This document shows positions 52,197 to 52,383 of a DNA stretch of 64,000 bases, piece by piece (position 1 is the stretch's first letter; each line of letters opens with the position of its first letter). The position numbers were made by a program, and so were the translations under genes. Under the pieces are notes generated by a model. That model was not told the DNA's origin. It did not search any database and saw only the letters and a list, made by a program, of their open reading frames with translations. The stretch is taken from NCBI RefSeq assembly GCF_058153355.1, contig NZ_CM177019.1. The stretch is one strand, 5' to 3'.

Positions 52197-52273
52197 TGGT
52201 TGCGGGGGCCGGATTTGAACCGACGACCTTCGGGTTATGAGCCCGACGAGCTACCAGGCTGCTCCACCCCGCG
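52197..52273 (-). tRNA. metW: Initiator tRNA-fMet (CAU)
   Basis: Reverse complement equals CGCGGGGTGGAGCAGCCTGGTAGCTCGTCGGGCTCATAACCCGAAGGTCGTCGGTTCAAATCCGGCCCCCGCAACCA. Confidence 0.95.
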
Positions 52274-52306
52274 TCACCGTACTGCTTTACTTCATCAAAT
52301 TTTGAT

Positions 52307-52383
52307 TGGTTGCGGGGGCCGGATTTGAACCGACGACCTTCGGGTTATGAGCCCGACGAGCTACCAGGCTGCTCCACCCCGCG
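52307..52383 (-). tRNA. metZ: Initiator tRNA-fMet (CAU), second tandem copy
   Basis: Identical 77-nt sequence, 33-bp spacer from the first copy. Confidence 0.95.

Follow-up and report, generated by a model that had tools for sequence, protein, structure and literature searches.

The initiator-tRNA array in the E. coli DNA analyzed here (a single stretch of 64 kb, hereafter the window) is a contracted allele of the metZWV operon, with two tRNA-fMet genes at a locus where E. coli K-12 has three. We consider it probable that this array is the three-gene operon minus one 110-bp unit, removed by recombination or slippage, and that the loss is unrelated to the accessory operon that lies beside the array.

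A metZWV array with two genes

In the whole window, ARAGORN calls two tRNA genes and no others; each is a tRNA-Met(CAT) on the minus strand. The two copies have the same 77-nt sequence, a 100% match to K-12 metZ, metW and metV alike, and a repeat search of the window returned the array as a perfect direct repeat of 80 nt, spaced by 110 nt. The array and its control elements are laid out as follows:

52142..52186, minus strand: intrinsic terminator (hairpin plus U7) serving the tRNA array and also closing the convergent accessory operon
52197..52273, minus strand: tRNA-fMet1, promoter-distal copy, last in the array and adjoining the accessory operon (ARAGORN; 77/77 against K-12 metZ/W/V)
52274..52306, minus strand: the sole 33-bp inter-tRNA spacer, TCACCGTACTGCTTTACTTCATCAAATTTTGAT on the plus strand, of the distal (amiC or island side) type ending GAT
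52307..52383, minus strand: tRNA-fMet1, promoter-proximal copy in the metZ position (ARAGORN; same sequence as the distal copy)
52384..52434, minus strand: metZWV-type promoter and leader, with a 13-nt leader ahead of the tRNA 5′ end
52402 to 52397, minus strand: putative -10 hexamer, TATAGT
52424 to 52419, minus strand: putative -35 hexamer, TTGCAT
52434 to 52427, minus strand: A-tract of the same promoter region

Both genes encode a cloverleaf tRNA with a CAU anticodon (ARAGORN), and the hallmarks of an initiator are visible in the sequence itself (CGCGGGG...TCGGGCTCATAACCCGA...CCCCGCAACCA): the CAU anticodon, a C1xA72 mismatch, an anticodon stem closed by three G-C pairs, and G46. The three G-C pairs of the anticodon stem are a described feature of initiator tRNA, and position 46 distinguishes fMet1 (G46) from fMet2 (A46) (PMC3017606 for both), which makes the window's genes fMet1. 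The K-12 metY gene (fMet2) has A46; metY lies outside the window, and the gene counts given here cover the metZWV array only.

The gene order in the window is recD, argA, amiC (ending at 46632), the accessory segment, the terminator, the two tRNA genes, the promoter and leader, mltA, tcdA, csdE and csdA. As is characteristic of metZWV, the array is located between mltA and amiC, is transcribed away from mltA and has the conserved promoter and leader, yet it holds only two tandem genes rather than three. The first-pass annotation of this DNA had described two identical 77-nt tRNA-fMet genes with a 33-bp spacer and had given K-12 three copies, and both statements hold: in MG1655, metZ, metW and metV lie between mltA and amiC and are separated by 33-bp spacers. 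The K-12 operon shares with the window the 77-nt tRNA, the position between mltA and amiC, the promoter and leader, the 33-bp spacer family and the 110-bp period. It differs in having three genes and in its downstream terminator and flank, since in the window a 5.56-kb operon replaces the 73-bp amiC-metV spacer.

The 20 nt beside the array on the mltA side are the same in all E. coli loci that we read, and the promoter and leader motif is kept across Enterobacterales. The reverse complement of 52384-52419 (36 nt) is identical to the K-12 homology arm of primer metZWVko_fp, and mutations in or beside the metZWV -10 lower tRNA-fMet levels (PMC3017606 for both). Our promoter assignment rests on this identity to characterized K-12 sequence, and the hexamers should be read as candidates. 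A scan of the array promoter for the sigma-70 consensus gave no match, because the -35 TTGCAT fits only 3 of 6 positions. At the other end of the array, the terminator folds with -18.6 kcal/mol (z = -3.8; 0 of 200 shuffles fold as well) and contains the inverted repeat I9 at 52149-52179; 78 bp separate the array itself from the stop codon of the accessory operon's final gene. Because promoter, leader and terminator are all intact, the array is predicted from its sequence to remain expressed, with one initiator-tRNA gene fewer.

A single-base marker points to loss of an internal unit

The two spacers of a three-gene array can be told apart by their last bases. In all of the approximately 15 three-copy E. 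coli loci that we read, which take in K-12, ST648-like and B2 strains, relatives of the window and island-free relatives, the distal spacer on the amiC or island side ends GAT, and the proximal spacer on the mltA side ends AAT. The sole spacer of the window is identical at 33 of 33 positions to the distal spacer of the three-copy loci L006-L009, L012 and L155 and of the B2 strain L004, and it differs from the proximal spacer at the G/A marker. The outer junctions are also identical to those of L006-L009 and L012 (30 nt compared at the island end, 20 nt at the mltA end), and the difference in length between the window and its three-copy relatives is exactly one 110-bp unit. Since both junctions are intact and the only spacer is of the island-side type, the lost unit appears to have been internal rather than island-facing, the mltA-side (AAT) spacer having gone with it. 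The first-pass annotation had placed the missing copy on the side that faces the island, which is contradicted by the island-side junction and GAT spacer, both kept, and by the loss of the AAT spacer. Our assignment turns on the single G/A marker, and an A-to-G change in a retained proximal spacer would mimic retention of GAT.

We read 15 two-copy loci, the window included, and set aside L161, whose draft contig breaks off within the array. GAT is kept in four (the window, CM2, 5CRE51 and O170:H18) and AAT in ten (L010, L157, ampC_0069, MB53, M18, 99-3165, RM13516, SCU-124, O25b:H4 and NRG 857C). As both classes are found, contraction is recurrent and has occurred with either crossover. The natural E. 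coli variants 99-3165, RM13516, NRG 857C, CM2 and 5CRE51, as well as the one-copy 2009EL-2050, have lost whole 110-bp units with their junctions intact, as has the window; however, most of the two-copy variants that we read keep the proximal AAT, whereas the window keeps the distal GAT. CM2, 5CRE51 and O170:H18 keep GAT like the window, but each has a spacer that differs from the window's at one base, through insertion or substitution.

Gain or loss of units by recombination or slippage is an established mechanism for short tandem repeats. We propose that the window's array would have started as a normal three-gene metZ-metW-metV initiator-tRNA operon, and that one 110-bp unit, consisting of a 77-nt tRNA and a 33-bp spacer, was dropped from inside it. 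The perfect repeats of 77-80 bp at 110-bp spacing probably underwent unequal homologous recombination, or else replication slippage. Because the island-side spacer was kept, the crossover would fall in a pairing of the middle (metW) copy with the promoter-proximal (metZ) copy; recombination and slippage are expected to look alike at the level of sequence.

Close relatives and the state of their arrays

Relatives of the window were found by exact-protein look-ups together with an island-only query, and their DNA is 99.0-99.8% identical across the region. A ranking by coverage had put the window at only 96.8% identity to any complete genome, which we discard as an artifact: the figure is misleading because three-copy genomes split into two places in that ranking.

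The window's island allele and three tRNA copies occur together in eleven loci (L005-L009, L012, L024, L030, L033, L155 and L158). There are 18 complete genomes at 99.6% identity or above (99.6-99.8%), and 0 of the 18 is among the nine two-copy or 14 one-copy island-adjacent genomes found in the survey described below. Where the arrays of these closest genomes were read directly, in 5 of the 18, all five had three copies. Some relatives do have fewer copies, with two in L010/L032 and in L157, where the other spacer is kept, and one in L011 and L029; these are separate events.

Copy number across complete E. coli genomes

Copy number was surveyed in 5426 complete E. coli genomes, using queries built so that a count of genomes matching at least 80% of the query separates one copy number from another. 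At least three tandem copies are present in 5001 of the 5426 (92%) and at least two in 5194, from which we derive approximately 193 genomes with exactly two copies (3.6%) and approximately 232 with one or none (4.3%). Arrays with fewer than three copies thus account for about 8% of complete E. coli genomes.

The accessory operon is present in 1683-1687 of the same 5426 genomes (approximately 31%) and directly abuts the array in about 564. The search joins overlapping pieces, to the extent that the two-copy 5CRE51 scored 100% against a three-copy query, and hence we worked by subtraction in this group. Nine two-copy and 14 one-copy genomes were listed individually and subtracted from the approximately 564, which leaves about 541 (96%) with three copies, a remainder that does not separate arrays of four or more. 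A first count of 1198, obtained with short-flank queries at 80% coverage or more, was contaminated by genomes carrying the T6SS island, because the terminator at the end of that island is homologous to the terminator of the accessory operon, and queries with longer flanks replaced it. The frequency of two-copy arrays is 1.6% beside the island and 3.8% elsewhere (odds ratio 0.41), a comparison that is descriptive, as the genomes are not phylogenetically independent.

Array contraction was found in every flank type, whether island-adjacent, T6SS-adjacent or K-12-type. With the K-12-type flank, 226 genomes have two or one copies, and two-copy arrays adjacent to a T6SS island were found in 24 genomes of one alignment class and in at least 13 more. 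The island-free strain 99-3165 is a 100% match to a synthetic K-12 two-copy locus, O145:H28 RM13516 is a second confirmed island-free genome with two copies, and a single copy is present in O104:H4 2009EL-2050. A two-copy array beside the T6SS island is shared by thirteen ST131-like O25b:H4 genomes that come from different laboratories, and EC958 has three copies. That the array is common to all 13 suggests real, inherited contractions, and the O25b:H4 two-copy array may be an inherited subclade marker.

Arrays beyond E. coli

The orthologous array was also counted in 61 species representatives of Enterobacterales in which it is not cut by a contig end. Three copies were found in 32, two in 18, one in 10 and four in 1, with the caveat that many of these assemblies are drafts and some counts may be collapsed. 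E. albertii NBRC 107761 (L034) has amiC, two tRNA-fMet genes and mltA with no island, Salmonella enterica subsp. arizonae and diarizonae (L082, L106) show the same arrangement, and Citrobacter has three copies at the orthologous array. By the first-pass annotation's own reasoning, island-free genomes with two copies would decouple copy number from the insertion, and 99-3165, RM13516 and the representatives of E. albertii, S. arizonae and S. diarizonae are such genomes.

Assembly collapse as an alternative

A different account of the window is that the genome truly has three copies, and that an assembler or gap-closer collapsed the array with its 110-bp period to two. We regard this as unlikely, although the locus is one where such errors occur. 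In CP008697, a genome designated complete (NZ_CP008697.1, strain ST648; L162), the whole three-gene array is represented by a single N between perfect flanks (approximately 848-852, compared with L002 8700-8996), which is an assembly or gap-closing artifact, and the draft contig L161 stops inside the array. The first two repeat units of the window's relatives share 107 identical bases, a length that short k-mers would not be able to resolve, and two copies with a GAT spacer are found in no close relative of the window. Against a collapse, the sequence of the window is continuous across the array, where the junctions are clean and there is no N. Contractions of the same structure are also present in many independently sequenced genomes, such as the 13 ST131-like genomes from different laboratories. 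We favor a real loss of one unit.

Possible consequences for initiator-tRNA dosage

The tRNA-fMet level of E. coli tracks gene copy number (PMC3017606), and large reductions in initiator tRNA lead to lower initiation fidelity and slower growth (PMC3017606, PMC8248024, PMC11480407). In the window, tRNA-fMet would probably be modestly lower, a small effect from the loss of one gene. We considered whether suppressors D4 and D27 of Kapoor et al. were deletions in the array; they are point mutations in the promoter -10, and no array recombination is documented in that paper (PMC3017606).

It is conceivable, but in our estimation doubtful, that contraction of metZWV is a recurrent and sometimes inherited dosage polymorphism rather than noise, serving as a natural tuning of initiator-tRNA dosage. 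If this were true, selection might favor contraction under some conditions, since a smaller supply of initiator tRNA lowers both the fidelity of initiation and the rate of growth. The genes themselves are the known metZWV initiator tRNAs, and gain and loss of units is the expected behavior of a short tandem array, so that the two-copy array is an ordinary copy-number variant. The survey, with about 3.6% of genomes at two copies and about 4.3% at one or none across all flank types, may interest those working on initiator-tRNA dosage once artifacts have been excluded.

Ancestral state of the array

Unequal crossing-over adds units as well as removing them, and four copies are present in one Tatumella representative. 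The species representatives of E. albertii and of Salmonella arizonae/diarizonae have two copies. One could accordingly imagine that two copies are ancestral in the window's lineage and that the three-copy relatives gained one by duplication. We find this very unlikely. At least three copies are present in 92% of E. coli genomes, and three are present in the closest relatives that we read and in the divergent, island-bearing Escherichia L069. Distinct distal and proximal spacers are kept across phylogroups, indicating that the three-copy form is older than the diversification of E. coli, and the relatives at 99.6-99.8% suggest that the window's genome sits inside a three-copy clade.

The accessory operon beside the array

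The array adjoins a segment whose extent in the window is as follows:

46633..52196, plus strand: low-GC accessory segment (island) of 5.56 kb with 5 genes (NCBIfam matches), the context of the tRNA feature
46833-52118, plus strand: the accessory 5-gene operon

The genes encode a BglG/LicT-family antiterminator, a MalX-like PTS EIICB, a PatB/MalY C-S lyase, a SIS-domain sugar-phosphate isomerase and a D-2-hydroxyacid dehydrogenase, and the GC content of the segment is 35-44%, compared with 50-55% in the flanks. Its ends coincide exactly with the amiC stop codon on one side and the tRNA 3′ end on the other. The 73-bp amiC-metV spacer of the K-12 type, which holds two terminators, is kept in E. 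albertii, Citrobacter and Salmonella, and is for this reason ancestral; the accessory segment is a derived replacement of it. The divergent Escherichia lineage L069 has an island 90% identical to the window's, together with three tRNA copies.

Two traits of an island targeted to a tRNA gene by an integrase are found in the accessory operon, namely an unusual base composition and an occurrence that varies from strain to strain, and two are missing. None of the five ORFs of the segment is an integrase by NCBIfam matches, and the tRNA 3′ end is not repeated at the far boundary. A search of the whole 64-kb window with the 24-nt tRNA 3′ end, allowing up to 3 mismatches, gave no third match, and the repeat search of the window gave no direct repeat flanking the segment. 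The partial third tRNA copy that the first-pass annotation had suggested looking for at the far edge of the island is thus found nowhere in the window by mismatch-tolerant search. The same search ruled out a tRNA-like remnant near ~46700, which had come up in a loose MAFFT alignment with the tRNA 3′ end.

Loss of the island-facing copy upon integration or excision of the island at the tRNA 3′ end is scarcely credible: the variable segment does end exactly at the tRNA 3′ end (CCA), at a known island hot spot (PAI-CFT073-metV, T6SS downstream of metV; PMC2660368, PMC3032704) where the T6SS island of B2 strains is flanked by a repeat with 14 nt of that 3′ end, but approximately 96% of island-adjacent arrays have three copies, divergent L069 included, two-copy arrays are rarer beside the island than elsewhere and exist without it, the window keeps both the island-side junction and the island-side spacer, the segment lacks an integrase, the window contains no tRNA fragment and the island has no flanking direct repeats. 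Parts of the first-pass interpretation survive, in that the tRNA 3′ end is a real boundary of the island, with the segment ending at CCA, and the contraction most likely arose by recombination between tRNA repeats. Other parts do not, since about 541 of the 564 operon-abutting arrays have three copies despite the island, and integration or excision as the cause left no integrase, remnant or repeat. The two-copy state should not serve as evidence for how or when the accessory operon was acquired.

Several smaller features of this region were also recorded. Directly upstream of the BglG/LicT-family antiterminator gene (start at ~46890) there is a hairpin, GGCAAGGCA...TGCCTTGCC, followed by T9 (46823-46876), which looks like the RAT/terminator leader typical of PTS operons controlled by a PRD antiterminator. 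Some relatives (L010/L032 and L160) have PatB/MalY broken into two ORFs. The recD-argA spacer (43581-43816) is 237 bp in the window and in island-bearing relatives, as opposed to 62 bp in island-free relatives, and holds a REP-like element as well as a second, approximately 85% identical copy of the argA 3′ end (about 43612-43690 vs 43770-43840).

T6SS islands and other rearrangements at the locus

The PAI-CFT073-metV / T6SS island occupies the same hot spot as the window's low-GC, variably present segment bounded by a tRNA 3′ end; the window, in contrast, has no T6SS island, integrase or tRNA 3′-end repeat. In about 1100 mostly B2 genomes, a T6SS island of approximately 31 kb lies between the operon and the array, and the array of strains with this island usually still has three copies. 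In the B2 strain MS21199 (L003 25672-25713; L004, tRNA-proximal end), the T6SS island is flanked by a direct repeat of approximately 41 nt, TTGCGGTTTGTCAGCATTCTAATAAAT followed by TGGTTGCGGGGGCC, part of which is a 14-nt stretch of the tRNA 3′ end. The island has no annotated integrase, and all three tRNA copies are still present in the array. It is the element known as PAI-CFT073-metV or "T6SS downstream of metV" (PMC2660368, PMC3032704), and the idea of integration at a tRNA fits it and not the accessory operon. In L159 (CP057790.1), an IS66-family element at 4292-6907 lies directly downstream of the dehydrogenase gene, at the site expected for the tRNA array or T6SS island, and is another rearrangement at this hot spot.
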